Virus record (IMG/VR): IMGVR_UViG_2852300590_000011
Length of the DNA stretch: 64,000 bases
Source: an uncultured virus (IMG/VR IMGVR_UViG_2852300590_000011)
Lineage: Duplodnaviria > Heunggongvirae > Uroviricota > Caudoviricetes
Strand: one strand, 5' to 3'
How positions within the stretch are numbered: the first letter of the stretch is position 1; each line of letters opens with the position of its first letter. This document shows positions 3,726-48,305 of the stretch, in pieces. The position numbers and the translations under genes are program-made. Below the pieces are notes generated by a model. It was given only the letters and a program-made list of their open reading frames with translations, did no database searches and had not been told where the DNA came from.

Positions 3726-4193
3726 GTGAACCACCAGGACCCAATTTTTACAATTACTAGCTCTTACTATCTAAACGAAATGCAAAGTGTTGTTTCAGGT
3801 AGGATCGATAAATTTATATCAATCGCACTATTTATCCTTGGTGGTTCTGTTATGGCCTCTTTCTCTAACATGTTCATCATAGGGGCGCTTATTTCAGCGC
3901 TATCAGCAATTCAAATTTTTTGCCAATTTGGTAAACAATCTGACGCCTCTAATGACAGAGCCAAGCAATATTTAGCATTAATGCATGATGCGTCAAAGCT
4001 TACTGAAGAAGAATTACACCAAAAAATAGGCAGCCTATTACAAAGTGACGTATTTGTTTTTGGCTCCTTGTATAATCCCGCGTATAAACGTGCCGCTATT
4101 CACTTAGGATTGCCGGACGATACGAAACTTACAAGGTTTGAGTCTGTAATGGCTTGGCTCGCAGGTGACCTGCCTATTTCCCCACATAATTGA
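3726..4193 (+). CDS. Two-TM membrane protein, SLATT-like topology (moron)
   Basis: Strong RBS, two adjacent hydrophobic helices followed by a helical tail; opposite strand to the pL operon. Confidence 0.7.
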   Translation: MNHQDPIFTITSSYYLNEMQSVVSGRIDKFISIALFILGGSVMASFSNMFIIGALISALSAIQIFCQFGKQSDASNDRAKQYLALMHDASKLTEEELHQKIGSLLQSDVFVFGSLYNPAYKRAAIHLGLPDDTKLTRFESVMAWLAGDLPISPHN

Positions 4194-4212
4194 TTCTCTT
4201 CACATATAAAAA

Positions 4213-4425
4213 TCATTTACTTTGTATCTGAATAGCGCTTTTACTGATGTACTCTGCTATTTCGGCATCTAGCTTTTTTACATCGCTCATTAGTCTTTCT
4301 CGCTTACCGTGTAAAACAGGGAGATAATCTATGCACTGCAACTTGCCCCTCATCCACTTTGCGATATCTTCGTTAGTGAAACCATCTGGCGCAATGATTA
4401 CGGGTTCTGTTGTCATTTGATTCAC
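4213..4425 (-). CDS. Small hypothetical early-left protein
   Basis: First ORF downstream of the putative pL/OL region. Confidence 0.6.
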   Translation of the reverse strand: MNQMTTEPVIIAPDGFTNEDIAKWMRGKLQCIDYLPVLHGKRERLMSDVKKLDAEIAEYISKSAIQIQSK

Positions 4426-4452
4426 CTAAGTTGTAATTAATGCTTTATTTAA

Positions 4453-4512
4453 AACACCTTTTGGTTGTTATGATAATTGTAAAAATGAAAAAGTCAACAA
4501 CTTTATGTTGTT
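4453..4512. promoter_or_regulatory. Putative OL operators
   Basis: 17-bp imperfect palindromes AACACCTTTTGGTTGTT (4453-4469) and AACAACTTTATGTTGTT (4496-4512); the second differs by one base from the site at 6168. Confidence 0.65.
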
Positions 4513-4558
4513 TGATTTGTTTTAAATAAAATTTAACTATAAGCTCAAAGGAGGATAT

Positions 4559-5446
4559 ATGAACGCTAACCCTGCATTTAACTACAAAAGAAATCGTGAC
4601 AAGTTATTCGCTAATTTAATATCAATCATTGATGGTATTCTTTCCGACGGGGAGCTATCTGATACGGAAATTTTATATGTAACTACATGGCTTAATGAGT
4701 CACATCAAATATCTGATAACCCATTTATTCAACTACTTAAGGACAGAATTACTCGAATTTTAGATGACGGGATTATAACCAAAGAAGAAAGATTAGATCT
4801 AGTTCAAACCTTAAAAAATGTACAACAGTCAATCATGGATATGCCCAGTGTTGACTTGTATTCAAAAGAATCAGATGTAAATTTGTTAATCGGGCTTTGC
4901 AAAGGGATAGTTGCAGATAAAAAACTCGAAGTTGATGAGATAAATTATCTCGATTGGTGGTTATCTAAGAATGGTCAGTTAAAAAAAAATTATCCTGGGA
5001 AATATCTTTATGAACTCATTAAGAAAATAAAAAAAGATGGGGTGATCAATAAAGACGAAAGCCAACTTTTATATCAAGCTTTAGTTGACTTTTCTGGTAC
5101 AGATCTTGAATACGGTGTTGTGGACGGTATGTCCTCTATATTACCTTGTGACCAATTAGATGTAGTGGAGGTCAAAAATTCATCTTTCTGTTTAACAGGT
5201 AGTTTTATATCAGGGAAAAGAGCTACTATAGCTGAAAGAATTAACAGTGCTGGTGGCTCAATTGTTGATAGAGTGACACATAATACTCATTTTCTTGTAA
5301 TTGGAGCTATGTCTTCTCGAGATTGGAGGTTTTCAAGTTACGGCAGAAAAATAGAAAAAGCTATCCTTGATCGTGATAATGGAAGATCTAATGTAAAAAT
5401 AATAACAGAAGAGCTGTTAATTAAATCACTACCAGCTTCTCGATGA
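4559..5446 (+). CDS. BRCT-domain protein with duplicated TerB-like N-terminal repeats
   Basis: Repeats L.....GILSDGELSDTEI.....WL and L.GL.KGIVADKKLEVDEI..L.WWL; C-terminal FCLTGSF..G.R...GG......T..T.FLVIG.....YGRKIEKA. Confidence 0.8.
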   Translation: MNANPAFNYKRNRDKLFANLISIIDGILSDGELSDTEILYVTTWLNESHQISDNPFIQLLKDRITRILDDGIITKEERLDLVQTLKNVQQSIMDMPSVDLYSKESDVNLLIGLCKGIVADKKLEVDEINYLDWWLSKNGQLKKNYPGKYLYELIKKIKKDGVINKDESQLLYQALVDFSGTDLEYGVVDGMSSILPCDQLDVVEVKNSSFCLTGSFISGKRATIAERINSAGGSIVDRVTHNTHFLVIGAMSSRDWRFSSYGRKIEKAILDRDNGRSNVKIITEELLIKSLPASR

Positions 5447-35572: not shown

Positions 35573-36507
35573 CTAAACTAGATAAAGCAAAAAGTTATAA
35601 GATTAATTTATTTTAAATAAAAATACGGGGTTTTTATATTGTTTATTTCATTTTATGAGGTTGGTGTGCATTTTTTTTGTTTTTTTTCAATCGGTTGTGT
35701 GTTTTTTTAGGCGCAGATGACTATTTATTCGATATTTCAATGTTGTGTTAATAATGAAATTATATAATTAATAAAATTTTTGCTTATTTGTTGAGCATCT
35801 TGCTCTTTTTTACTATTTATCAAATGATAAAACCTCTGTAAATAATATTGTTTTTTATTATCATTCGCTTTTTCTGCTTTGTTGAGAGATATTTATACTG
35901 GTTATTTCTATTTTGAGTAGATAATTATAATGAAAATTAACTTTAATATAAAAAATAAAATGAAATCATTGAGTGTCATTTTTTATTATTGATTATGTCT
36001 TTAATGTATTGTATTAATATTTTGTTCATTAGGTTTTCATTTGAAAATCTTAACATTACGTTTATTAAAATTTAGCCCGTATTTATACGGTTTTTTTATG
36101 AATATCAGTTTTTTACTAATGTTATTGCGAATTTAATTATAATATATAGCTAAAAAACTAAGAAAATTAGTGAAAATTTCTATTGAATTATAATCACATT
36201 ATAATTTTTAAAATTTTAGTTAATTGCAGTTTGGTTTGAGATTAATAGAAAGTAGCTGATGTAAAGTATATTGCTTAGTGCTAATATTGATAATTTAATC
36301 AAATGATTGCGTTATTATATCATTTCTTAAGTTAAATAATTGTTTTTTTTGTATAAAGAAAGCAATTTTAATGAAATTTAAAAACAATTAATATCATTGT
36401 TAAAAGATTATAAGATTTAATTAATGTAAGAATATTTACTTTGTGAATTTTATCATATAGTATTTCTTTCTTTAATGTCATAACTCATTGGGTTTATTTC
36501 TTTATTT

Positions 36508-37911
36508 ATGAATTTTATATTGAATTGTAAATTCAGATTTTGTCTGTTATTTATTCTATTTCTGAGTTTTCATAGTATTGCGAATGACGATTATAATAAA
36601 AAAAGTAATAATTTAATAACTGAGGCTCAATTGGTTGAGGATCCTACTCTATTATTACGATTATTTATTCCTGCATTAATTAGAAATGATGTAGAAGGTG
36701 TTGGATTATTACTTTCTATTTATGAAAAACAAAAAAAAACAGAAAATGATGAGTTGTTAATATGGGGTAATGCTATTATTTCTCGTAAGAATAAAGACTT
36801 AGATAAGTCAATATCATTATATAGAAGTTTAGTTTCTAGAAATCCTAAATTAGTATTTGCTCGATTACAGTTAGCAATTTCATTATTTGAAAATAAAGAG
36901 AATGAGGCGGCATTAGAACAATTTGATAAACTGAAAAGCGAAAGCTTGAATGATAACATCATTGATATTATTAATAAATATTCCGAATTAATCAATCACC
37001 AGAATGATTGGTCATTTAATGGTGGCATTGTTTATTTAAATGAGTCAAATATTAATAACTCTCCTAAATTAGGTGTTAATGCTGCAAATTGGAAGAGTAC
37101 ATCAAAGCCTGAAAGTGCTGAGGGTTTTTCTTATGTAGGGGTAGCTGAAAAGAAGTTATCGATATATAAAAATTACTTTTCTTTATTGAATATTCGAGGA
37201 AAGGGAAAATATTATTGGGATAACTCTAAATATAATGAAATATCTTCTAGAGTGAAAGTGGGATTGGGATATAAAGATTTAACTAATGAAGTGTTATTTT
37301 TACATTTTGTCGAATACTCATGGAATCCAAATAAAACTCAACAAAATGGTTCTACATTTCATCGTTATTCAAATGCAATTGGAACAGAGGTTGAAATAAA
37401 CAATTGGTTAAATAAGCAATGGAAAAATTCACTTTCAGTTGAGTTATCAAGGCAAAGTTATCATAAGACAAAACTATTGGATGGTAATGTTTATTCTGTA
37501 TCTGATACACTATTGTATATATCAAGTAGTAATCAATATTGGTTTTCTGGAATAGATTTTTATCATAAAGAAGCTAAAAGTAAAGCTAATGCTTTTGATC
37601 GATTCAGTGTCCGTGCAGGTTGGGGGCAAGAATGGTTACAAGGTATTTCTACTCGTTTTCAAGTTGGTTATGCTAAGCGTATTTATCAAGGAGCAATAGC
37701 AGAAGAAAATAATTATTGGGTTCCTGATTTTTATAAAAAACCACAAAAAAATGATGAGTATAGTGTTTATATAACATTGTGGAATAGAAATTTTTATTTT
37801 TATGGAATTACACCAAAAATAACATGGGCATATCAAAAAATAGATAGTAGTAATTTATTTTATAGTTATGATAAAAATAACTTTTATCTTGAGTTTAGTA
37901 AATATTTTTAA
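36508..37911 (+). CDS. Slam/DUF560 outer-membrane translocon (type 11 secretion)
   Basis: Signal peptide, TPR-like RLQLAI.LFEN.E.E.A..QF.KL, NINN motif, LWNR.....GITPK.T, C-terminal FYLEFSKYF beta-signal. Confidence 0.87.
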   Translation: MNFILNCKFRFCLLFILFLSFHSIANDDYNKKSNNLITEAQLVEDPTLLLRLFIPALIRNDVEGVGLLLSIYEKQKKTENDELLIWGNAIISRKNKDLDKSISLYRSLVSRNPKLVFARLQLAISLFENKENEAALEQFDKLKSESLNDNIIDIINKYSELINHQNDWSFNGGIVYLNESNINNSPKLGVNAANWKSTSKPESAEGFSYVGVAEKKLSIYKNYFSLLNIRGKGKYYWDNSKYNEISSRVKVGLGYKDLTNEVLFLHFVEYSWNPNKTQQNGSTFHRYSNAIGTEVEINNWLNKQWKNSLSVELSRQSYHKTKLLDGNVYSVSDTLLYISSSNQYWFSGIDFYHKEAKSKANAFDRFSVRAGWGQEWLQGISTRFQVGYAKRIYQGAIAEENNYWVPDFYKKPQKNDEYSVYITLWNRNFYFYGITPKITWAYQKIDSSNLFYSYDKNNFYLEFSKYF

Positions 37912-37931
37912 TTAAAGTTGGATATTATATT

Positions 37932-38986
37932 ATGAAAAAAATATACCTTTTGTTGTTTTACCTCTTATTATTGCTGGATGTTCTAGTGGTGGCGGTGAGA
38001 ACAAAGATAATAATGTTATTCAGGAAAAGAAAGTCGATGTTATATCTAATAACCCTACATCTAGTTTAAATAAAGAGGAGGGTAAAAGAGTCAATGAAGC
38101 ATTAAATAAAGAAGTAAATGAAGAAGTAAATGAAGAAGTAAATAAAGTAACGAATAAAGTAGTGAATGAGGTGGTAAATAAAGAAGTAAATGAAGTGGTG
38201 AATGAGATAATAAATAAAGAAATAAATAGAATAGATGAAAAAGAAGATGCTGCGGAAATTTCAAACGATAAAGGAATATCCGTGGATGAAAAATTATTAT
38301 CAGATAATAAAGAAAAAGTATATACAGGTAGTAAGATAGATAAGATATACCATTCTAACTGGGATTATGGGAAAGAAAATATTCCTGTTTATAATATTGA
38401 AGGTTCAAAAGATCCATATGAGAATTATTTATCTAGTGAGGAAAAAATAATTACTTTCGTAACAGATAAAGGCGATTCGCATCAATTTAGTTTATTGGGT
38501 GATGTTGGATATTATGGGTATCGAATTGAATTAGATGCTGATAGAACAGCAAGTTATGCTTCTTATATTTATTCTATTGAAAAAGACCTTATTGCTGAAA
38601 ATGTGCCTAATGATTTAAATGCTGTGTATAGTAAAAAAGACGGTTTTGTGTATGGTCCATTAGATCATAGATCTGATCAAATAAACGCAGTCGTTAGAAC
38701 AGCAGACATTACAATGAATTATACTAATGGCATAGTTAAAGGTGTTATTACTGAAAATGATCCATATATAGGTAATGATGAATTATTTAAAATAGATGGT
38801 AATACTAAAAGTTTAGTAATAACACCTACTCGGCATGTATCAAATGGTATCATTCCTAATGATAGAGCAGCAATGGATATTCAATTTGTTAATTCTGCAG
38901 AAAATATAGATGATCACAAATATATTTTAGGAACTACAAAAGCGGAGTCATGGGTAGGTGTATTAGCAGCAGAAAAACAGAATTAA
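37932..38986 (+). pseudogene. Slam-cargo surface lipoprotein with a 1-nt frameshift in the A-run after ATG
   Basis: ATG+A7; one extra A gives MKKNIPFVVLPLIIAGCSSGGG (lipobox) in frame with ORF 38162-38986; acidic repeats; barrel-like C-terminus WVGVLAAEK. Confidence 0.8.
38090..38232 (+). repeat. Imperfect 12-bp coding tandem repeats (VN[E/K][E/V])
   Basis: GAAGTAAATGAA-type units repeated about 11 times. Confidence 0.8.
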
Positions 38987-39028
38987 TATTAGAGTGATGT
39001 ATAGCTATTTTAGTTAGTTTTATTTATC

Positions 39029-39053
39029 AAAAGCCTCTTAGCTGAGGCTTTTT
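39029..39053 (+). terminator. Intrinsic terminator after the lipoprotein gene
   Basis: AAAAGCCTC-TTAGCT-GAGGCTTTTT. Confidence 0.75.
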
Positions 39054-39426
39054 AAAAAATCATAGTCTAGGTTTATATGGATAAAAATAATTATAATTTT
39101 TTAAGTAATGAGAGTTTTTCACACCATGTATTAAGCGTTTCTCGTTTTTCTCTAAAATAATCATATCTATCATAATGCTTTTGAGAAATTCCTAGTCTTT
39201 TATGGTTTTGTACCATATTCTTAATTCAGAACTTATTCCCATTTTTCTAGCTAATGTTTCGAATACTCACTAAGTCATGTTTACAGCCCTAATTAGTGGT
39301 TATCAAAACCAATAAAAGCATTATGGTAATCAACTAGTTATAAAAATGCATAATCACTGTATTTTAAGTCTATTAAGAGTAAATATGCCTTAATAAACAA
39401 ATAGTTAATAATGGCTGATTTATATA

Positions 39427-39591
39427 ATGCTACGCCACATGGGGTGGACAGAAGCCGCTGACTTAATCATTAAAGGTATGGAAGGCGCGATCGAAGCGAA
39501 GACCGTTACTTATGATTTCGAACGTCTAATGGACGGCGCTAAAATGCTGAAATGTAGCGAGTTTGGTGACGCGATTATCAAACATATGTAA
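39427..39591 (+). pseudogene. icd: icd 3'-end duplicate (att junction, icdC-like)
   Basis: [54 protein letters not shown] is the IDH C-terminus; IHF-consensus AATCAACTAGTTA at 39328-39340. Confidence 0.93.
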
Positions 39592-39749
39592 TTGTTGATT
39601 TGATAAATAGTTAACGGGAGCTTATTAGTTCCCGTTTATTTTTTGTACTACAAAATTCTTCCCCAAAACCCCACCAAAACTATTCCCCAAAACAGTACAA
39701 TTAAAAATGTGGATTATCTGAAGTAATTTCTGGGAACAATGCGTGGTGT

Positions 39750-40166
39750 GTGAACTTAATTGATACTATTCAAGGTAATTCAGCAGAATATGAGCTCTAT
39801 GTATTTGTGAAATCTTCTTATCATATTTCACTTCATCCTCAAAAATGGGGAATTCAAATTTATCATAAAGGTGTTATTACACACGCTTCAAGTCAAAGAC
39901 CGCTTAATTTATTAGAGGGAAATAACTTTGTACTCACAGGAAATAATTGGAATGGCGTGGATGTCGGGTTTCCTTGTGCGGTATTAATCACAACAATAGG
40001 GCATATTGGGATGATGGATTCGATGGGAGGAAAAACAATTAGGATAACTCTTTGTGGACGAGGTAACCGTATTATCCCTCATTCCATGATAGTCTCCGGA
40101 CAGATGTCAACAACCTCACTAGGTAAGCAGTATTTTTATATTGATGTAAGGGAGTATGGTGGGTGA
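39750..40166 (+). pseudogene. Fragment of a tail-fibre accessory gene
   Basis: YELYVFV...KWGIQIY...RPL resembles DIYVCVFV...RWGLSLY in 34672-35214; no 5' part. Confidence 0.55.
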
Positions 40167-40625
40167 TAGAAGAGTTTAGATGGTTAGTTTAGTTATTGAG
40201 TACGAGAGAGCGCTAAAAAAGGATATATTCGTTGGTAGTCGGCTTTGTGCCAAAAACGGGGCTCTGCCAGCTCGTTATTGCCCCATTCCGTGTTTTGGCT
40301 CGTTAGCTTAATCGAAAGTTCCCGCTCCTGCTACCATACAAATTCTTATCTATTTGCCTATGTTTGGTTTTACCAGAAATCGACTAACCGTGTATGGAGA
40401 TACAGCCATATGACTTGAACACAGTATTAGTGCGCACCAATTCCATTCGGAATAAATAAAACTCTATAAAATCAATTAACTATAGAGACTTAGTTTTAGT
40501 TGATAGGTTTAAAAAACGCGCATGCACATTTTTCAAGATGGTGTATTTGGTTGAAAGCTGATAACTTATTTGTATACAGATAGTTAATCATGCGCGTTTT
40601 TATTGGCCTAACGAGTTAAACACAC

Positions 40626-40649
40626 GTGCGCACAAATAAAATATTAGGC
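40626..40649 (+). other. attI-like site
   Basis: GTGCGCACAAATAAAAT-ATTAGGC resembles the recalled AATAAAATGTTRRRY attI end; TTAGGC is complementary to R'' of the next attC. Confidence 0.5.
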
Positions 40650-40694
40650 CTATACAACACGACAGGCTTTAAGAATGTTGTTCCAAATCTTCCG

Positions 40695-40765
40695 GCCTAA
40701 CAAATCGTTCCAGAGGACTCCGAAAAAGCTACGCTTTTTCTCCCCTCTGAACTCATGCGTTATAT
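40695..40765 (+). other. Integron attC site 1 (71 bp)
   Basis: R'' GCCTAAC, L'' GTTCCAG / L' CTGAAC with one extra base, inner stem GAAAAAGC/GCTTTTTC, R' GTTATAT. Confidence 0.8.
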
Positions 40766-40778
40766 TTAAGAGGCTAGC

Positions 40779-41681
40779 TTGAGCGGTATAAAAATAACTT
40801 TTGCTTATGATAGCAATGGTGTTCGTGTGGATGCAGATTCTTATGGGGATCACTCTATAGCTCATCCTCTCGTATGTCCAGATAAAAACTGTGAAGCGTT
40901 TTTGAAGCATGTGAATGGGTATAAGCGTGAAAGCTACGGCAAACAGCAGTTCATCCCTGCTTTTTACCGATTAGAAAAAGGCTCCGATCATAGTGAGTAT
41001 TGCCGTTACAAATCCTCTGGCAGAGATACAATTGTTGCTGGAGAGTCAGATCATGAAGTTAAAGATGCTCTTGCGAAAGGTGAACTATTGTTTCGTATTC
41101 ATGTAATGGATGCGGAAGAAAAGGAAAAACTAAAAGATAAGGCAGGGGTCTTTCAACAGTTTCCACCGAATGATACGACTAAGCGGAAATATAGAAACCA
41201 AGGACGCAGATCTACTTATGTTCGCACGATGAATAGCCTATTGGAAATCTATAATCATGGGCGTCTTAATTCACAAGATAGAGCAAAGATTAGGCTCATT
41301 ATTGGCGGTAAGTTAGTAAAGTGGACAGATTTCTTTTACTCGACCAATCATCTAGGTAGTCTAAAATTGCGCCTTCATCGAGAGGGAATTGTTCAAGCAG
41401 CCGTTGTAGTTAAAGTAAGTATTGTAGGGCTACCAAATCAAAAACTTGGTGGCTTTTGCTTTATAGAGTGCAGCCCCAAGACTACTGGATTAGGTAAACA
41501 TATATACACGACGTTGAAACTAGCTAAGAGCTTACCAAGTAGTCACTTCTCTTTGAATCAAAACATAATGGTTTTAGGCAAATTTTGCATTCCAGAATCA
41601 AGTGACCGTGTTACTCCATCATATTTAGGTAATGAAATCAGGACATTAATAACTCATACACAGCAAGTGGTGGACATTTGA
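40779..41681 (+). CDS. Cassette-borne 300-aa protein with a putative N-terminal Zn ribbon
   Basis: RBS AAGAGG right after attC1; CPDKNC...HSEYC; stop codon abuts attC2. Confidence 0.8.
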   Translation: MSGIKITFAYDSNGVRVDADSYGDHSIAHPLVCPDKNCEAFLKHVNGYKRESYGKQQFIPAFYRLEKGSDHSEYCRYKSSGRDTIVAGESDHEVKDALAKGELLFRIHVMDAEEKEKLKDKAGVFQQFPPNDTTKRKYRNQGRRSTYVRTMNSLLEIYNHGRLNSQDRAKIRLIIGGKLVKWTDFFYSTNHLGSLKLRLHREGIVQAAVVVKVSIVGLPNQKLGGFCFIECSPKTTGLGKHIYTTLKLAKSLPSSHFSLNQNIMVLGKFCIPESSDRVTPSYLGNEIRTLITHTQQVVDI

Positions 41682-41806
41682 GCATAACAAACTCTTCCAG
41701 AGGAATTTCCAACACATGGCATTTTATTGTACGTTGATTTCGGTGATTTCAGTATTATGCGGAAACTTGGTAGTAATGTTGTCAGCCCCTTAGGCGAGCG
41801 TTATCT
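41682..41806 (+). other. Integron attC site 2 (125 bp, Vibrio repeat-like)
   Basis: GCATAACAAA..TTCCAGAGG..TTCCAAC.C.TGGCATTTT...GTTG....CCCCTTA....GCGTTA matches the recalled length and layout of Vibrio chromosomal attC repeats. Confidence 0.78.
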
Positions 41807-42087
41807 CCATAGAAATTTTAATCTGAAACTGACGAGTTAGAGCAAAGGGTCTACCACGCTTTATATGTCCCGAAGCGAGTTAGGGCAATGACCATTATTC
41901 GCTCGCAGCGGACCTTGTGACCTTGAATTTTGTCCTTTCCGTGCCAGGAGCGGACATTTAATGATTCTAAAAACTATGATGTCGCAGCCCAGTTTTGCCG
42001 ACCGTAGCTTGGCAACAAATGACGTGATTGACTATTTTTGTTTAAACAGAGAAGATTTAAGAATAGCCTCTTAAGGAATAGATTCTC

Positions 42088-43074
42088 ATGTTACGAAAAA
42101 GCATTGAAGCTAAGAAGAGACACCATTATGTTTGGGCGAATTACCTAACGCGCTGGGGTAATGGTACAAAAAATGTTTTCTACACAACCAAGACTGGAAA
42201 GATTGCCTGCGACAGTGTACGTGCAATAGCTGCTGACGACTTTTTCTATAAAACAACAACGCTTACTAGCGAGAACGTTGATATAATTAAGGCCTTCTCT
42301 CGAAAAAGCCCCAACCATCTCCATACTCAACACATTTCCTACCTAGATGACGTCCTTAAACTGCAAAGATTAGAGGCTATGTATAGGGCTTCTGGTAAAC
42401 AAGATCAGGAAGCGGAAGCACTTCTTCATGCCACAAAGTGCAACTTAATGGAGAATCTCCATTCATCTCATGAATTGAAGGCATTATCGATATTAGAAGC
42501 GCTCGCAAATGAAAGGCTTGATATACTTCATGATAAACAGCACATGATTGAATTCATGATGTTCTTTGGTCATCAGATTACGCGTACAAAGCCTTTCAGG
42601 GACGCAGTGTTTAATGCTCAGCCTCGTCGTAATAATCTTGAAATAAAAGTATCCGACACGATTGTTCATGCCTGGTGGTTTATAAGCTACATGTTTGGGA
42701 TGAATATTGGCTGGAGTTTATATTCAAGTCGTAATGAAGATATACATTCATTATTGGTAAACGATACCGGGCTACCTTTCATAACATCAGATAATCCAGT
42801 CGCTAACGTTCACTCATGTGTCTTAGAGACAGATTTTATCGCGCCTGAGTATACTGACTTTTACTACCCAATTTCACCACGCATAGCCTACATCATATGT
42901 AATTCAAAACGATTTTCTCCAGGTGTGAACTATATCGATAAAGATACTGTTGAGAAATTAAATATAAAAATTGCAAACCAAGCCATGGTGCATATTATAG
43001 GAAACACAACAAACGCCCTACTACCTTATAAAAAACGCCTGGGTTTAAGATATAAAAAAAGGCCTCTTTTTTAA
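42088..43074 (+). CDS. DUF4238-family protein (candidate anti-phage)
   Basis: N-terminal HHYVW..YL..W and FITSDNPV...YYPISP..A signatures. Confidence 0.82.
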   Translation: MLRKSIEAKKRHHYVWANYLTRWGNGTKNVFYTTKTGKIACDSVRAIAADDFFYKTTTLTSENVDIIKAFSRKSPNHLHTQHISYLDDVLKLQRLEAMYRASGKQDQEAEALLHATKCNLMENLHSSHELKALSILEALANERLDILHDKQHMIEFMMFFGHQITRTKPFRDAVFNAQPRRNNLEIKVSDTIVHAWWFISYMFGMNIGWSLYSSRNEDIHSLLVNDTGLPFITSDNPVANVHSCVLETDFIAPEYTDFYYPISPRIAYIICNSKRFSPGVNYIDKDTVEKLNIKIANQAMVHIIGNTTNALLPYKKRLGLRYKKRPLF

Positions 43075-43356
43075 GATGGTATGTTTTTATATAAAGTTAA
43101 ATATAAGCATCAACCTTAAATTCATTCATCGCAACATTGTACCAATGTCCGCTTATCGCTCAGAGCAGACCTAAAATCGTTCTGAGTGATGAGTGCCAAA
43201 AGATGATATTGCTAACACCGTCATGTGTTGATTAAAAAGGAAAGTGCCAATGCTTTGAAGAAAGTACAAGAAGACAATTTAATGGGGTAGACCAGTAAAC
43301 TAATAACCAATTATCGATTGCTGATCTTACAGAAGCTCACTAAAAGAGTTTGAGTG

Positions 43357-43734
43357 CTAGCGTTGTACAATCCGATCGTTGGAATCCAACCACATTCCAT
43401 CAGACAAATACACCATTTCCCCAGAATCATTTGTTACCTGTAGGTCATGGTAAATTGAAGTAAGTTCGTTTTCGGGCGAAGGCGCAATATCGTCGTTTCC
43501 AAAAATCATATCTTGGTATTGCGACCAGTTTTGGTGAATTTCGAAATACATATCAACATCATAATCCTGCATTCTTAGTTCATCATCTGAAGTTATATTC
43601 AACGTCTTTTTGAGACCGATAATGTTAAAAATCCATTTCTTACCACTTTTAATGAAGTATGCTCCCGTGTAAGCCTCTTGGTCTGGTACTGCCTCATAAC
43701 CTAAACTCAAAGATAACTGTATCTGTTCTGCCAA
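43357..43734 (-). CDS. Hypothetical acidic protein (start uncertain)
   Basis: Frame open upstream (..YGWKKPFTLAEQ) but has no ATG; C-terminal YLSDGMWL. Confidence 0.55.
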   Translation of the reverse strand: MAEQIQLSLSLGYEAVPDQEAYTGAYFIKSGKKWIFNIIGLKKTLNITSDDELRMQDYDVDMYFEIHQNWSQYQDMIFGNDDIAPSPENELTSIYHDLQVTNDSGEMVYLSDGMWLDSNDRIVQR

Positions 43735-44235
43735 TGTAAAGGGCTTTTTCCATCCATACTTGTTTACCTGTTTACTGTACGAAAACGATATAATAAAGCA
43801 TTATTGATAACCATGACCTAAGTAAACTTAACTAAATATGTATTATAAGGTCATTTATTCCCAGAATAAGATCCACTCCTTTCTCAAAGCTGATAATCAG
43901 ATTTAATCTATTGCATAATAAATTGTTATTTTGTTTTTTTTAAATATTCACTACATTAGTATAGTGAAAAATATTCAAATTAAATAAAAATCCCTAATTT
44001 ATTTTCAGTGTGAATTATTTTAATTAAATTTTTACTTTCTATTATTTAATATAAATCATAGGTTTGAATGCTTGATATCAAGCTTGATAAGCACTCAATC
44101 ATTAAAGTATCTTCCCCAAAACCACCCTAATCCAAACTAAAAATCAACCAGTTACATACAAACCAAGATCACATAAAAATTATCACCTCAATAAATATAG
44201 TTTATTTAATAAGTTACCTAATTATTATAGGTATA

Positions 44236-44349
44236 ATGTTACGCCTCATGGGTTAGACAGAAGCCGCTGACTTTATCATTAAAGGTATGGACGGCGCTAA
44301 ATTGCTGAAATGTAGCGAGTTCGGTGACGCGATTATCAAAGATATGTAA
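44236..44349 (+). pseudogene. icd: Second, decayed icd 3'-end duplicate
   Basis: Same sequence as 39427 with an internal TAG and a 51-bp deletion between ATGGA repeats; IHF-consensus AATCAACCAGTTA at 44142-44154. Confidence 0.9.
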
Positions 44350-44645
44350 TTGTTGATTTGATAAATAGTTAACGGTAGCTTATTAGTTCCCGTTTTTTAT
44401 TAATGTTTTTTTACAATAATAAATAACATACTCATATAGAGAATTGTATTTAAATAGCCAAAGTTAGCAAAAGTGAATAAATCTCAACAGACATTAAGCT
44501 AAATATAAAATATGAGTGAATAAACAATAAGGTATTTATTTTGGTGAAAAATATAACAGAAAATAATCTGCAAATGGCATGATAAAGAAGCCGAAGTTTA
44601 TCAATTGCAGATTATCTGATGCTTAAAAATATAACCAAATAAAAA

Positions 44646-45773
44646 TTAACAGGTAATGGTTACCCACTCTTTTCCACGAGTATTGTTATAACGATCAGTT
44701 TGTAAACGTGTGGTATGGCCTAATAAGGCTTGGGTATCAATACCTTGTTTTCGGTATAAACGTTCAGATAAAGAACGTTGCTCATGAAATGTTGCAGGTG
44801 TTCCTTCTCCCCAATCAATATCCGTTTTATTTCTCGCCTTTTTAAAATTAGTCGTTAACGTATTTGCAGTAACTTGTTCGCCACGTTTAGATTGTGAAGT
44901 AGTTCGATGATAATGAACTAAATAATGGCTTACAATACGATCACGACATCGTTCAATAACTTCTTTAAGAGATACATTAATAGCTTGATTACGTAAAGAA
45001 AGTGGTATTGCTACTTTTGATCCTGTTTTACTTTGTATGATGTGCAAATGATCATCCCAAATATCTTGAAAACGCATACGTGAGATATCACTAACTCGCT
45101 GACCCGTCACAATGGCAAGTAGCATTGCATTTCCCATATAACGATGTTGTTTATCGGCAATATCATAAATTTTATGCCATTCATCTAGAGTGAGTCTTTG
45201 GCGCCTGATCCGTGTTCTTGGCCTTTTCGTTGCTAGAGCAGGGTTATATCCGGGAGGAACCTCTCCAGCATGTTGCGCTTCTTTAAAAATATCACTAAAA
45301 ACCGATCTTACAACTTGAGCCATACGCATTTGACCTATTGCTTTGTATTCATCAATAATACTGACTAGATCACGAGTACCTATATTTGCTAATGGATATA
45401 AAGCCAATTTTTGACGCATCAGATCTATAGGTTTTTTCTTTTGTTTATATGTAGCAAGTTTTATCTCACCTTGTGATAAACGTTCTTTTTGAATATTCCA
45501 ATAGCGATCTAACCATGTAGAAACAGAGATAGATTGATCTTTCATAGTAGCAACTCTATCACCAATGATTAAAATTTGGCGTGTTCTTTGTTCTGCTATA
45601 CGGTTATTGGCTTCAAGAGCTATCTGTTTAGCTTGTGCTTCATCATCTCCTAATGAATGAAATTTTCCTGAAATTGGGTGACGGTATCGCCAATATATCT
45701 TTTTCATCCTTGGATGATATATTGAATATAAATTGGGTATATCAATATTCTTTTTATGAAGTCGTCCGCTCAT
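44646..45773 (-). CDS. int: Tyrosine integrase, paralogue of int1
   Basis: Same length (375 aa) and motifs TGQR, HEQRSL, LLGH...Y. Confidence 0.95.
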   Translation of the reverse strand: MSGRLHKKNIDIPNLYSIYHPRMKKIYWRYRHPISGKFHSLGDDEAQAKQIALEANNRIAEQRTRQILIIGDRVATMKDQSISVSTWLDRYWNIQKERLSQGEIKLATYKQKKKPIDLMRQKLALYPLANIGTRDLVSIIDEYKAIGQMRMAQVVRSVFSDIFKEAQHAGEVPPGYNPALATKRPRTRIRRQRLTLDEWHKIYDIADKQHRYMGNAMLLAIVTGQRVSDISRMRFQDIWDDHLHIIQSKTGSKVAIPLSLRNQAINVSLKEVIERCRDRIVSHYLVHYHRTTSQSKRGEQVTANTLTTNFKKARNKTDIDWGEGTPATFHEQRSLSERLYRKQGIDTQALLGHTTRLQTDRYNNTRGKEWVTITC

Positions 45774-46011
45774 CTTTTAATATTTTCCTTAATATAGGGT
45801 CATCGAATGTTTTGATGGAAGGAGTGGCAACTATACCAACTAAATCAGCATCTTCTTTGACTCGCCATAATCGGCCCTCTTTCCTTGCAGGGGGACAAAA
45901 ATAACCTAATCGTGCATATTTATTTAATGTTGTTAGAGAAGGTGGATTACTTTTATATCGTTTATCCGACCATTCCTTTAATGTTAATACTTTCATAATA
46001 CATCCTTGCAT
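45754..46011 (-). CDS. xis: Excisionase
   Basis: LTLKEWS..RY...P...TL..YAR.G...PPARKEG.LWRV. Confidence 0.87.
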   Translation of the reverse strand: MQGCIMKVLTLKEWSDKRYKSNPPSLTTLNKYARLGYFCPPARKEGRLWRVKEDADLVGIVATPSIKTFDDPILRKILKDERTTS

Positions 46012-46253
46012 AATAAAAATTAGTTAATAAGTATTAATTTACATTTAAATAAAAAAATAATGAAATTTATTTGACAACTAATAAATAGTATTATTTTCTA
46101 TCGAATATATATTTCCTTTTGCATTGTTAATAAGAGAGATGTTTGTTAATAGATAATTATTGTACCTGATGTTTATATTATTACAATAACCATGTAATGG
46201 GAAGTACATATTGAGCTGAAATGAGCCAGCTCAATAAACTAAAATAAAGAAGA

Positions 46254-46913
46254 TTAGAGAGTCTGAATAATTTGTATTACATAACCAATAATTTGATAAT
46301 CATCAGTAAATAATATTGGGGTAAAGGCTGTGTTTAATGAAATTAAATAAAATTGTGGTGGTTCATGGATAAACTTTTTAATAACGATGTCATTAGTAAT
46401 AATATTTTTAGCGATAATTATTTTTCCATATAACTCTATCTTATTCTTGAATGATGGTTCGATAATAACGGTTGAACCTTTAGGGATTGAAGGAAGTGAA
46501 TAGGGGTTTGTCATAGATTCGCCTTGGTAAATTAACCCATATGCTTGTTCAGATACGGGTACTGTTGCACAGCACCAATGCTGAATATCGCTTAATCTTA
46601 ATGTATCGTAACGTGCTTTCCAATCAGCTGCTTGTTCAAGCGTGATAATGGGTATTTTCTTAATATTCACTGTCTTGCGAGTTATAATTAATGCATCTGC
46701 TTCTGATGAGTTTCCCCCGTAAAGTAACCATTCAGGAGAGACTTCAAGGACTTTGGCTAATGCCTGTAAATTTTCTCCATCCGGTTCTGTAACTCGTGTT
46801 TCCCACTTTGTAATAGAAACTCGGCTTACACTTAACATCTTTGCTAGAGCTTCTTGTGTTAATGACAATTGTAAACGGCGTTCTTTAATTCTTATGTGCA
46901 TTTTATTTCTCAT
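46254..46913 (-). CDS. CI-like repressor (HTH plus S24)
   Basis: HTH LTQEALA...VSRVSITKWE; GESM and IKK motifs. Confidence 0.85.
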   Translation of the reverse strand: MRNKMHIRIKERRLQLSLTQEALAKMLSVSRVSITKWETRVTEPDGENLQALAKVLEVSPEWLLYGGNSSEADALIITRKTVNIKKIPIITLEQAADWKARYDTLRLSDIQHWCCATVPVSEQAYGLIYQGESMTNPYSLPSIPKGSTVIIEPSFKNKIELYGKIIIAKNIITNDIVIKKFIHEPPQFYLISLNTAFTPILFTDDYQIIGYVIQIIQTL

Positions 46914-47231
46914 GTAATTTATGTTTCCTTTTTTTTAGGTAAAAAGTATTTGCGTACTCTTTGTCTATTTGTTAATTTTAATTACCCAAACGGATAACTT
47001 ATTAATTTAAGTGATATGCATATAATATAAATTAATTATATTAATTCGAATGACTATAGTTTTAGTATTAATAAAATGCTTACTATTTTAGTCATGATTA
47101 AATTTAATAAAATAGAATATTTTACAAAACACTAACGGAATTACCATCTTTTGTTATTTTTTCAATTAAATTATTTTTAATTTAATGCTTTTTGGCATTT
47201 AGAAAGAATAAAGAGAAAAGGAGTTCAGCAT

Positions 47232-48305
47232 ATGAAATCATTAATTATAAAATCTCGACCTCAGATAGTGATACCAGAATTAGCTGTCAAAATTGGATTG
47301 CATGAAGCTTTAGTATTGCAACAATTGCATTATTGGATAACAGAAACTAAGTCTGGTATTGAACATGATGGGCGACGATGGATTTACAATACACTATCTA
47401 ATTGGCAATTACAGTTTCCATACTTATCAGTATCAACGCTCAAACGGGCATTTGCTCAGTTACGTATTTCTGGCTTGATTGAGGTAAAACAACTCAATAA
47501 ACATCTTCATGATCGTACAAATTTTTATAGTATCAATTATCAACATAAGATCTTGCAAATAGAAGAAGATGAAAAGAAAAGTTTGAATGAAGGTAATTAT
47601 GCCAATAAAACAACAATAAAACCGTTCGATGAGCCCAAATCGAAACAATGGACAGGTGTAACAAATCTATCTCAGAGTAGTTCAAATAGAGCCCTTCTTA
47701 CAGAGAGTACAACAAAGATAACTACAGAGAGTAACAATAAAAGATCTCGGTCAGTTTGCTCGTTTTCAAGTCCTGAACGTCCAGAAATAGAAATTATCCG
47801 TTATTTTAACAAAGTGACTCACTCCCATTACCGTGAGTGTCAGACGACGTTAGGATATATCCGTGCAAGATTAGCTGATGGTTTTCATTTCGAAGAATTG
47901 ATATTAATAATCGATTATTTAACAGCTAAATGGCTCAATGATAATAATATGCAGGACTATTTAAGGCCTAAAACATTATTTCATAAAAATAATTGTACTG
48001 AATATCTTGATAAAGCGAAGAAATGGCATTTAAAAGGGAGGCCAGCATATCGAAATGGGCAATGTTTAAAACCCGGGGAAATACCGATTGAAATTGATTA
48101 TGCAGAAAGAGACAGTACGTTTAATTTACTATTTAGCTCAGCGTGGAAGCCCAAAACAGCACTTCAAATTCTAGCTAAAAAAATGGCTTTACAGCGTGGT
48201 TTAGGGCATATGCATATTCACAAGGCTAGGTCTGTTTGGAAAGAAATTTGGTATCAGTCGGCTCAATTAATTGCTCGTTCAACAATTACAGATAAGATCG
48301 CATAA
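47232..48305 (+). CDS. Phage replication protein
   Basis: N-terminus homologous to the 7482 protein; YLRPKTLF C-terminal domain. Confidence 0.85.
   Translation: MKSLIIKSRPQIVIPELAVKIGLHEALVLQQLHYWITETKSGIEHDGRRWIYNTLSNWQLQFPYLSVSTLKRAFAQLRISGLIEVKQLNKHLHDRTNFYSINYQHKILQIEEDEKKSLNEGNYANKTTIKPFDEPKSKQWTGVTNLSQSSSNRALLTESTTKITTESNNKRSRSVCSFSSPERPEIEIIRYFNKVTHSHYRECQTTLGYIRARLADGFHFEELILIIDYLTAKWLNDNNMQDYLRPKTLFHKNNCTEYLDKAKKWHLKGRPAYRNGQCLKPGEIPIEIDYAERDSTFNLLFSSAWKPKTALQILAKKMALQRGLGHMHIHKARSVWKEIWYQSAQLIARSTITDKIA

Follow-up and report, generated by a model that had tools for sequence, protein, structure and literature searches.

Clusters of attC sites without an integron integrase (CALINs) are defined as at least two attC sites that lie close together with no intI nearby (PMC9892861; 10.1101/2022.09.11.507474). 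They are common; the available part of one survey counts 2961 of them in 21,105 genomes, 1362 with two cassettes (bioRxiv 10.1101/2022.09.11.507474). The closest described case is in the cryptic Shewanella prophage vB_SspM_M16-3, where, according to the available text, a CALIN is headed by an attI of the Shewanella type, the motif of which (AAACGCGCATGCGCACTAATAAAATGTT) marks the start of the array (PMC9892861).

Here we describe an integron module in a 64,000-nucleotide (nt) stretch of DNA from an uncultured virus (IMG/VR record IMGVR_UViG_2852300590_000011; the whole stretch is hereinafter designated the window). The window comprises two tandem lambdoid prophages at icd. The module contains an attI region, a cassette without an open reading frame (ORF), a gene cassette encoding a 300-residue protein (ORF300), and two attC sites, attC1 and attC2 (Table 1). 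We consider it highly probable that the module is a two-attC CALIN with its own attI, carried as a decaying passenger in a prophage cargo slot. The comparisons below show that its cassettes arose in a marine gammaproteobacterium through integron recombination.

Results

Two attC sites and no integron integrase in the window

The core consensus of attC sites is RYYYAAC for R'' and GTTRRRY for R'. attC1 has R'' GCCTAAC and R' GTTATAT, and attC2 has R'' GCATAAC and R' GTTATCT; in both sites AAC and GTT are exact, with one or two departures each at the degenerate positions of the consensus.

We trained an attC covariance model (R1, distinct from the model of IntegronFinder) on 20 attC sites taken from cassette arrays in other genomes. 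The RNAalifold consensus of these references is a canonical attC in which an unpaired spacer separates a 4-bp R box from an L box with bulged bases, supported by compensatory changes in 7 of 14 pairs. One training site (L003:4374-4474) comes from a cassette homologous to that of ORF300 (68% identity), while the other 19 come from unrelated cassettes; R1 is thus not wholly independent of attC2. Scanning both strands of the whole window with filters off gave 13 matches at E ≤ 10, only two of them at E ≤ 0.01, and the third-best match has an E value of 0.23. The two are attC1 and attC2, at exactly the positions where an earlier reading of the sequence alone (the sequence-only reading) had placed them. 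tblastn searches of the whole window with the IntI proteins of genome G336 and of Vibrio rotiferianus returned nothing below E 0.9, which bears out the absence of intI reported by the same reading. Because attC1 and attC2 are spaced 917 nt apart with no intI in 64 kb, the pair constitutes a CALIN; a complete integron, with intI adjoining attI, is not present within the window.

The sequence-only reading described both sites as textbook hairpins, which holds for attC1 but not for attC2. Specifically, the bottom strand of attC1 folds with an 8-bp L stem and an extrahelical G, with a minimum free energy (MFE) of −11.2 kcal/mol and a z score of −3.4. The bottom strand of attC2, folded as DNA, has an MFE of −7.5 kcal/mol and a z score of +0.8 and forms no R box in the MFE structure, and three of its 14 stem pairs are non-canonical in the R1 alignment. 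Among the 20 references, bottom-strand MFEs range from −10.1 to −22.0 kcal/mol and z scores from −0.6 to −5.4, and the R box is present in 15 of the MFE structures. The attC of the V. rotiferianus orthologue also forms the R box, with an MFE of −12.3 kcal/mol (z −2.1). attC2 is the least stable folder among the 23 sites folded.

The assignment of attC2 to the Vibrio repeat type was well founded. When 401 genomes of the V. rotiferianus family were searched with the island that contains the module, 177 matched, and among the matches listed most fall on attC2, with 72–88% identity over ~123 nt. A strict attC1 pattern had no match in metagenome contigs. A looser pattern of the attC1 5' arm matched 118 stretches in these contigs, and one of the 80 fetched is an attC by the model. 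It lies on contig L115, which carries 40260–41903 at 97.1% identity. No relatives of attC1 or of the ORF-less cassette were found in the metagenome pattern searches beyond the module's own close copies.

Cassette boundaries coincide with crossover points

Homology of the gene cassette to three relative loci runs from GCG|TTAT (40757–40763) to GCG|TTA (41798–41803), and the sequences outside these limits are unrelated. Limits at G|TT crossovers are the mark of a cassette. An AAGAGG ribosome-binding site (RBS) lies 5 nt ahead of the TTG start of ORF300 (40779), and the TGA stop (41679–41681) abuts R'' of attC2 at 41682, in agreement with the earlier description of a single ORF bracketed by attC sites, with its RBS after R' and its stop touching R''. 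Homologues of ORF300 do stand next to attC sites, a point on which that reading had staked the cassette: in all three homologue loci confirmed by genome scan, an attC adjoins the stop codon or overlaps it. The homologue in V. rotiferianus CAIM 577 (L001) ranks second among the cassettes that follow attI, at a distance of ~800 bp from an intI scoring 502 bits against a cut-off of 265.

The start of the ORF-less cassette, TTAGGCC, is the exact complement of GGCCTAA in attC1 R''. In V. rotiferianus, the four bases after GTT complement the first four of the cassette's own R'' in six of six cassettes. The ORF-less cassette follows the same rule at 4/4 positions (TTAGGC and GCCTAA), so that the TTAGGC-ended cassette seen by the sequence-only reading stands, with a length of 116 bp. 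The gene cassette follows it at 2/4 positions in the window, 4/4 in L115, and 4/4 in V. rotiferianus.

The attI region resembles the Shewanella type

The core attI matches the Shewanella-type motif at 23 of 28 positions. One of the five substitutions is at 40643, which is A where relatives have the crossover G. The 150–240 bp flanking the motif are homologous at 77–84%, and the motif is exact in Vibrionaceae locus L029. The attI-like site proposed from the sequence is therefore right in kind, although it appears to be of the Shewanella rather than the Vibrio type and is damaged at the crossover.

Of the 401 genomes in the V. rotiferianus family, at least 15 have a match to positions 40495–40646, and 11 Vibrionaceae loci fetched from these genomes were examined. 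In all 11, the conserved stretch closes, apart from minor variation, with GCGCAC(T/G)AATAA(AA/GC)TG|TTA. Beyond G|TTA, each locus has a sequence of its own, usually an RBS followed by an ORF; the covariance model finds an attC downstream in seven. A complete intI lies 298 bp from the attI crossover in two loci (L021 and L025) and is cut to 41 amino acids in one (L032), while none adjoins attI in the other eight.

The attI copies without an adjacent intI are L026–L031, L033, and L034 in Vibrionaceae and L067 and L189 on Shewanella plasmids. Each is followed by different attC-bearing cassettes, and they often occur on both chromosomes of one genome. These copies suggest orphan platforms that are serviced in trans.

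Two other identities of the attI region were considered and rejected. The core resembles a dif/Xer site, but attC-bearing cassettes come after it. The 150-bp region as an ORF-less cassette is at odds with its ragged left ends, with the lack of a common left G|TT, and with its position adjoining intI in L021 and L025.

The module is a fragment of an integron platform with shared arms

The attI region is flanked on its left by a non-coding arm that is common to two Vibrionaceae genomes, G194 and G215 (loci L029 and L030). Left arm and attI together (40279–40646) are 77–80% identical to Shewanella plasmids, and a remnant of the left arm is present on six Providencia alcalifaciens plasmids (86.7% over 40260–40349). 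In all, pieces of the platform occur on Shewanella, Providencia, Moellerella, and IncC plasmids. Each full copy of left arm and attI has a different first cassette, followed by attC; the first cassette is a PIN-domain gene on the S. xiamenensis plasmid, and the S. putrefaciens plasmid and G194 have other ORFs in this position. In IncC plasmids of Enterobacter, Citrobacter, and E. coli, the attI region precedes two attC-bearing cassettes, annotated as a FosG-family gene and a sugar O-acetyltransferase. At the other end, the same terminus follows the last attC in six loci (the window, L025, L027, L029, L068, and L115) and occupies ~45–75 nt after the last attC in related platforms.

The same arms occur in other genomes; a platform fragment with left arm, attI, cassettes, and terminus was captured, not a random slice of a Vibrio array. 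The sequence-only reading had proposed that a phage-derived element in an enteric host captured a piece of an integron array. The icd-site element and the enteric host, of the Proteus lineage, are upheld; the captured piece is instead a whole platform fragment.

The same arms bear on how the cassettes reached the prophage. According to the available part of one report, insertions at secondary (attG-type) sites are documented and could yield small CALINs or single attC sites lacking integron-integrase (SALINs) (bioRxiv 10.1101/2022.09.11.507474), and an integrase might thus have inserted free cassettes straight into the prophage. The ~380 bp upstream of the first cassette are, however, homologous to the attI platform elsewhere, and the terminus lies downstream, so that a platform fragment was transferred and not cassettes alone. 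We regard direct insertion of free cassettes as extremely improbable.

The arms also raise the question of mobility. Left arm, attI, and terminus could form a self-contained mobile platform without an integrase, the cassettes of which are exchanged through integrases acting in trans. Such a satellite would spread among Shewanella, IncC, and Providencia plasmids, Vibrionaceae chromosomes, and Morganellaceae prophages, and the Proteus copy would be a stranded, decaying dead end. This fits the shared junction of left arm and attI in the window, L115, two Vibrionaceae genomes, and Shewanella plasmids with differing first cassettes, the 8 of 11 Vibrionaceae copies of the attI region without adjacent intI, the terminus common to six loci, and a 10/12 inverted repeat at the ends of L115. 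The repeat is, however, short and partly deleted in the window, and no target-site duplication and no transposase were found. Moreover, left contexts may differ through recombination alone, and the cassette differences could predate the loss of intI if it was lost several times. We hold a self-contained mobile platform to be doubtful, and its spread as a satellite among these replicons is likewise a tentative proposal. A captured fragment of an integron platform is the reading we prefer.

Further observations concern the arms and their relatives. L068 is Enterobacter hormaechei IncC plasmid pN069_1 (locus 4001–5409); the IncC plasmids are conjugative and come from three clinical genera. No intI is annotated alongside this locus, and a 634-residue "site-specific integrase" lies upstream. 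L115 is flanked on the left by a diverged version of the phage boundary and on the right by an IS30-type transposase gene. Its ends carry the inverted repeat GGTCATT(A/G)CC; at the left end, 12 nt (TCATTACCTGAA) are missing from the window. Repeated words resembling CTAACTCG and CGAGTTAG occur in the left arm and in the terminus. The left arm was rejected as an intI remnant, as it has no tblastn match and no conserved reading frame. Terminal inverted repeats with target duplication were also rejected, as the sole repeat is the one in L115 and no duplication was found.

The recombination sites appear to be decaying

The close copy in L115 allows the decay of the sites to be followed. L115 shares A at the attI crossover. 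Its attC2 retains one pair that is lost in the window (91 versus 87.8 bits), whereas its attC1 has two broken pairs (19.6 versus 25.7 bits). Different sites are thus damaged, which indicates that the damage arose independently in two lineages. Between the window and L115, 18 of 518 positions differ in the left non-coding part (3.5%) and 10 of 221 in the right non-coding part (4.5%). In ORF300, 17 of 903 differ (1.9%), with a synonymous divergence (dS) of 0.032 and a ratio of nonsynonymous to synonymous divergence (dN/dS) of 0.50. The corresponding values between the window and V. rotiferianus are dS 0.94 and dN/dS 0.08. With non-coding divergence of 3.5–4.5% against a dS of 0.032, the recombination sites change at about the synonymous rate, and the ORF is somewhat better kept. 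All close copies seen have the same module content. Within ORF300, the sibling record L035 shows a 1-nt deletion (at 41454) that is either real or an assembly error. From the letters of the two sites, it is possible that the 5' arm of attC2 is a patch copied from attC1, as a shared TTCCAGAGGA covers two of the three broken pairs.

These values also bear on whether the module is still a working cassette donor, from which an integrase supplied in trans (of class 1 or 2, or of the Shewanella or Vibrio type) would excise the ORF300 circle. attC1 folds well (z −3.4) and has its extrahelical G; attC2 scores 87.8 bits and keeps both R boxes, and the probability of R-box folding is similarly low (0.04 or less) in four of the 20 genuine reference sites. 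Some integrases also tolerate changed extrahelical bases of attC, according to the available part of one study (PMC3053210). Against this, three stem pairs of attC2 are broken and the site is the least stable of 23, the attI crossover base is changed, the sites drift at a neutral rate with different sites damaged in different lineages, no intI is present in the window, and the module content is the same in all close copies. A working donor is therefore improbable. To judge from the state of the sites, excision in trans by IntI1 or IntI2 would be less likely than the sequence-only reading implied.

ORF300 is a conserved protein of no named family

ORF300 has 20 relatives at E ≤ 1e-3. It is 85–87% identical to proteins of Enterovibrio, V. 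rotiferianus (86%), and V. gallaecicus and 79% identical to a protein of Shewanella sp. W3-18-1. A profile search retrieved 228 clusters at E ≤ 1e-3, mostly of 300–330 residues. ORF300 has no Pfam, NCBIfam, or PADLOC family, 26 distant relatives have no consistent Pfam family, and the protein atlas contains only unnamed clusters for it.

A structure model from 18 sequences has a mean pLDDT (predicted local distance difference test score) of 79.9, and residues 185–300 adopt an OB fold. VIA gives Z scores of 8.0–8.8 to the anticodon-binding domain of aspartyl-tRNA synthetase and to MCM, RPA, and HIN domains, values that are near the background ceiling of the tool although the matches are uniformly OB folds; the Foldseek E value is 4e-4. 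A role in nucleic-acid binding is likely from the modelled fold. The invariant residues C33, C38, H71, and C75 point to a zinc site. Integron cassettes are reported to encode defence systems, as the available part of one study describes (bioRxiv 10.1101/2024.07.02.601686). From its setting, ORF300 might be guessed to be an anti-phage gene.

A consensus scan found no strong plus-strand promoter ahead of ORF300. In noncoding-RNA sequencing runs X17 and X18, which derive from one sample, a contig spans exactly 40104–40845 and has small-RNA 5'-adapter sequence at both ends. The contig end at 40845 is ~7 nt downstream of a promoter-like site on the minus strand, TGGACA-17-TAGAGT (40880–40852). An antisense RNA may start inside ORF300 and read across attC1 and attI; the contigs from which this is drawn are no proof of transcription.

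The module occupies a variable cargo slot in Proteus-lineage prophages

Two copies of an icd 3'-end repeat enclose a 4.64-kb island without an integrase, which contains ORF138, the integron module, a DUF4238 gene, and a small minus-strand ORF. Of the icd-integrating prophage, only the right end is left at this locus. ORF138 shares 99% identity with a portion of a Proteus terrae protein, which identifies the host as the Proteus lineage. A relative of ORF138 is encoded in 28 IMG/VR prophage loci, and the segment that contains it (39709–40259) is 90–94% identical in 20+ IMG/VR loci, most of those compared. Its conservation ends at ~40250–40260. In most of the ORF138 loci compared, the segment is followed by a few kb of unrelated DNA and then by a segment resembling 43870–44401 and the icd repeat. 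Conserved flanks around unrelated cargo place the module in a variable cargo slot, which belongs to the right end of a prophage that integrates at icd.

Among the prophage loci compared, the module is present only in records 99–100% identical to the window (L035/L060, L036/L044, and L012), and the attC covariance model found no attC in five Proteus-type prophage loci without the module. The RNA-library contig X15 is identical to the window over 40250–43153, yet has 23 differences in 39733–40249, a pattern that fits swapping of whole cargo between prophage backbones. The layout of icd copy, ORF138 remnant, cargo, and icd copy (39644–44286 in the window) is also present in L046, L058, and L059 with different cargo, which indicates that the prophage remnant is old and that its cargo slot is still turning over.

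Table 1. Coordinates of the integron module and of the surrounding features in the window.
Feature	Position	Strand	Remark
Integron module overall	40260-41903	+	Left arm to array terminus
Left arm of the integrase-less platform, non-coding	40260-40400	+	Stands where complete relatives have intI
attI region, homologous to the stretch between intI and attI in Shewanella-type integrons	40401-40643	+	Core attI 40618-40645
ORF-less cassette, 116 bp	40644-40759	+	Carries attC1
attC1, 71 nt	40695-40765	+	25.7 bits, E 9.7e-4
Gene cassette with ORF300, 1041 bp	40760-41800	+	Homology limits at crossovers
ORF300, 300 residues, uncharacterised	40779-41681	+	TTG start; Cys/His N-terminal residues, C-terminal OB fold
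attC2, 125 nt, Vibrio-repeat type	41682-41806	+	87.8 bits, E 5.1e-18
Conserved array terminus	41801-41903	+	Conserved to ~41872; L115 identity runs to 41903
Lambda-type integrases with Arm DNA-binding domain	1-1128 and 44646-45773	both −	One per prophage
icd 3' fragment	39427-39591		Iso_dh C-terminus
Left copy of icd 3'-end direct repeat (attachment-site copy), 115 nt	39529-39643	+	95% identical pair
Conserved right-end segment of Proteus-lineage prophages	39709-40259	+	ORF138 at 39750-40166; variable cargo slot starts at its end
DUF4238 gene unit, neighbouring cargo outside the integron	41941-43074	+	Separate unit
Right copy of icd 3'-end repeat	44287-44401	+	Followed by the integrase of the next prophage at 44646-45773 (−)

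Neighbouring genes

Apart from the module, the slot holds a second and independent cargo, the DUF4238 unit. Over its first 160 nt, with the upstream region and the gene start, this unit has 96% identity to an IncFIB/IncFII plasmid of Klebsiella pneumoniae from a flying fox, on which the match is located between TonB/colicin-type genes and a GH26 gene. PADLOC, Pfam, and NCBIfam give no family for ORF138 or ORF125, and DUF4238 is the sole family found nearby. A search of 36000–48000 against Rfam at E ≤ 1 gave a chance plastid match only. Farther upstream, a stretch of 22–29% GC at the right-hand end of the first prophage carries a gene for Slam, a surface lipoprotein assembly modifier (36508–37911), and downstream of it an ORF without a family (38162–38986). 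The two look like a prophage-borne pair of Slam and its substrate.

Discussion

The following course of events would account for the module. An integrase-less platform fragment would have been carried whole into the Morganellaceae, plausibly by a plasmid, and would have come to lie in the variable right-end cargo slot of an icd-integrating prophage. Homologous recombination in the conserved flanks would then have exchanged the cargo between prophages. In the host lineage, the recombination sites would no longer be maintained and would hence be decaying, and the module would now be only a passenger that carries ORF300, a protein with a zinc-binding-type region and an OB fold.

Several points weigh against this account. 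attC1 is intact, and attC2 keeps both R cores, 10 of 14 Watson-Crick pairs, and one G-T pair. According to the available part of PMC3053210, IntI2*179E and SonIntIA tolerate changes of extrahelical bases in assays, and residual recombination at the sites is possible. ORF300 is intact in the window and L115 and is more conserved than its flanks, and it may still be under selection; the comparison of this gene between the two includes only 17 differences. The intI search covered the 64-kb window, and an intI may be present elsewhere in the genome. Finally, we infer the entry route, by plasmid and then illegitimate recombination, and no junction signature was found at the boundaries of the module.

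The module is a clean case, dated by decay, of marine cassettes from Vibrionales or Alteromonadales that have become prophage cargo in a clinically relevant enteric genus. It illustrates the fate of attI and attC without a cognate integrase, which drift at a neutral rate while the passenger gene is kept. The integrase-less attI platform is also recurrent, and relatives on conjugative IncC plasmids lie beside a cassette annotated as FosG-family fosfomycin resistance. If the platform is serviced in trans, it would be a little-noticed route for cassette traffic.

In the papers on integron attC sites in Proteus prophages listed in our literature search, the titles and abstracts do not describe the module or the platform, and neither is described in the papers on the SonIntIA attI and on fosG Shewanella integrons, supplements excluded. 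The system most similar to the module is the CALIN of vB_SspM_M16-3. Both are prophage-borne attC clusters without intI, with the same attI motif at the head as far as the available description goes, and the phage record matches window positions 40496–40646 at 83.6%. The hosts differ, a Proteus-lineage enterobacterium for the window and Shewanella for M16-3, and the available text of that report places a complete integron with intI in the M16-3 prophage as well, whereas none is seen in the window. In addition, the attI of the window has five substitutions, one of them at the crossover G, and its attC sites are decaying.

For the gene cassette, the counterpart is cassette 2 of V. rotiferianus CAIM 577, which has the same TTG start, RBS, and boundaries, a Vibrio-type attC, and an ORF that is 86% identical. 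The V. rotiferianus copy sits beside intI and attI in the long array of a sedentary chromosomal integron, while the window has no intI; the V. rotiferianus attC folds canonically, and attC2 of the window does not. With a dS of 0.94, V. rotiferianus is not the direct donor.

The SALIN and attG insertions of single cassettes, as presented in the available part of bioRxiv 10.1101/2022.09.11.507474, resemble the module in that the cassettes lie away from an integrase. The module differs from them in having an attI platform and two attC sites, and no secondary-site junction is seen.

The plasmid modules of Shewanella xiamenensis, S. putrefaciens, and the IncC group share with the window the attI region (77–82%), cassettes ended by attC, and the lack of an adjacent annotated intI. 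The left arm is shared by the Shewanella plasmid copies and the array terminus by the IncC copy. They differ in being plasmid-borne, in carrying other cassettes, and in keeping the crossover G of attI. Compared with all of these, the host lineage, the setting in a prophage cargo slot, and the measurable decay are new, and the shared arms hint that an integrase-less attI platform with fixed ends is circulating widely.

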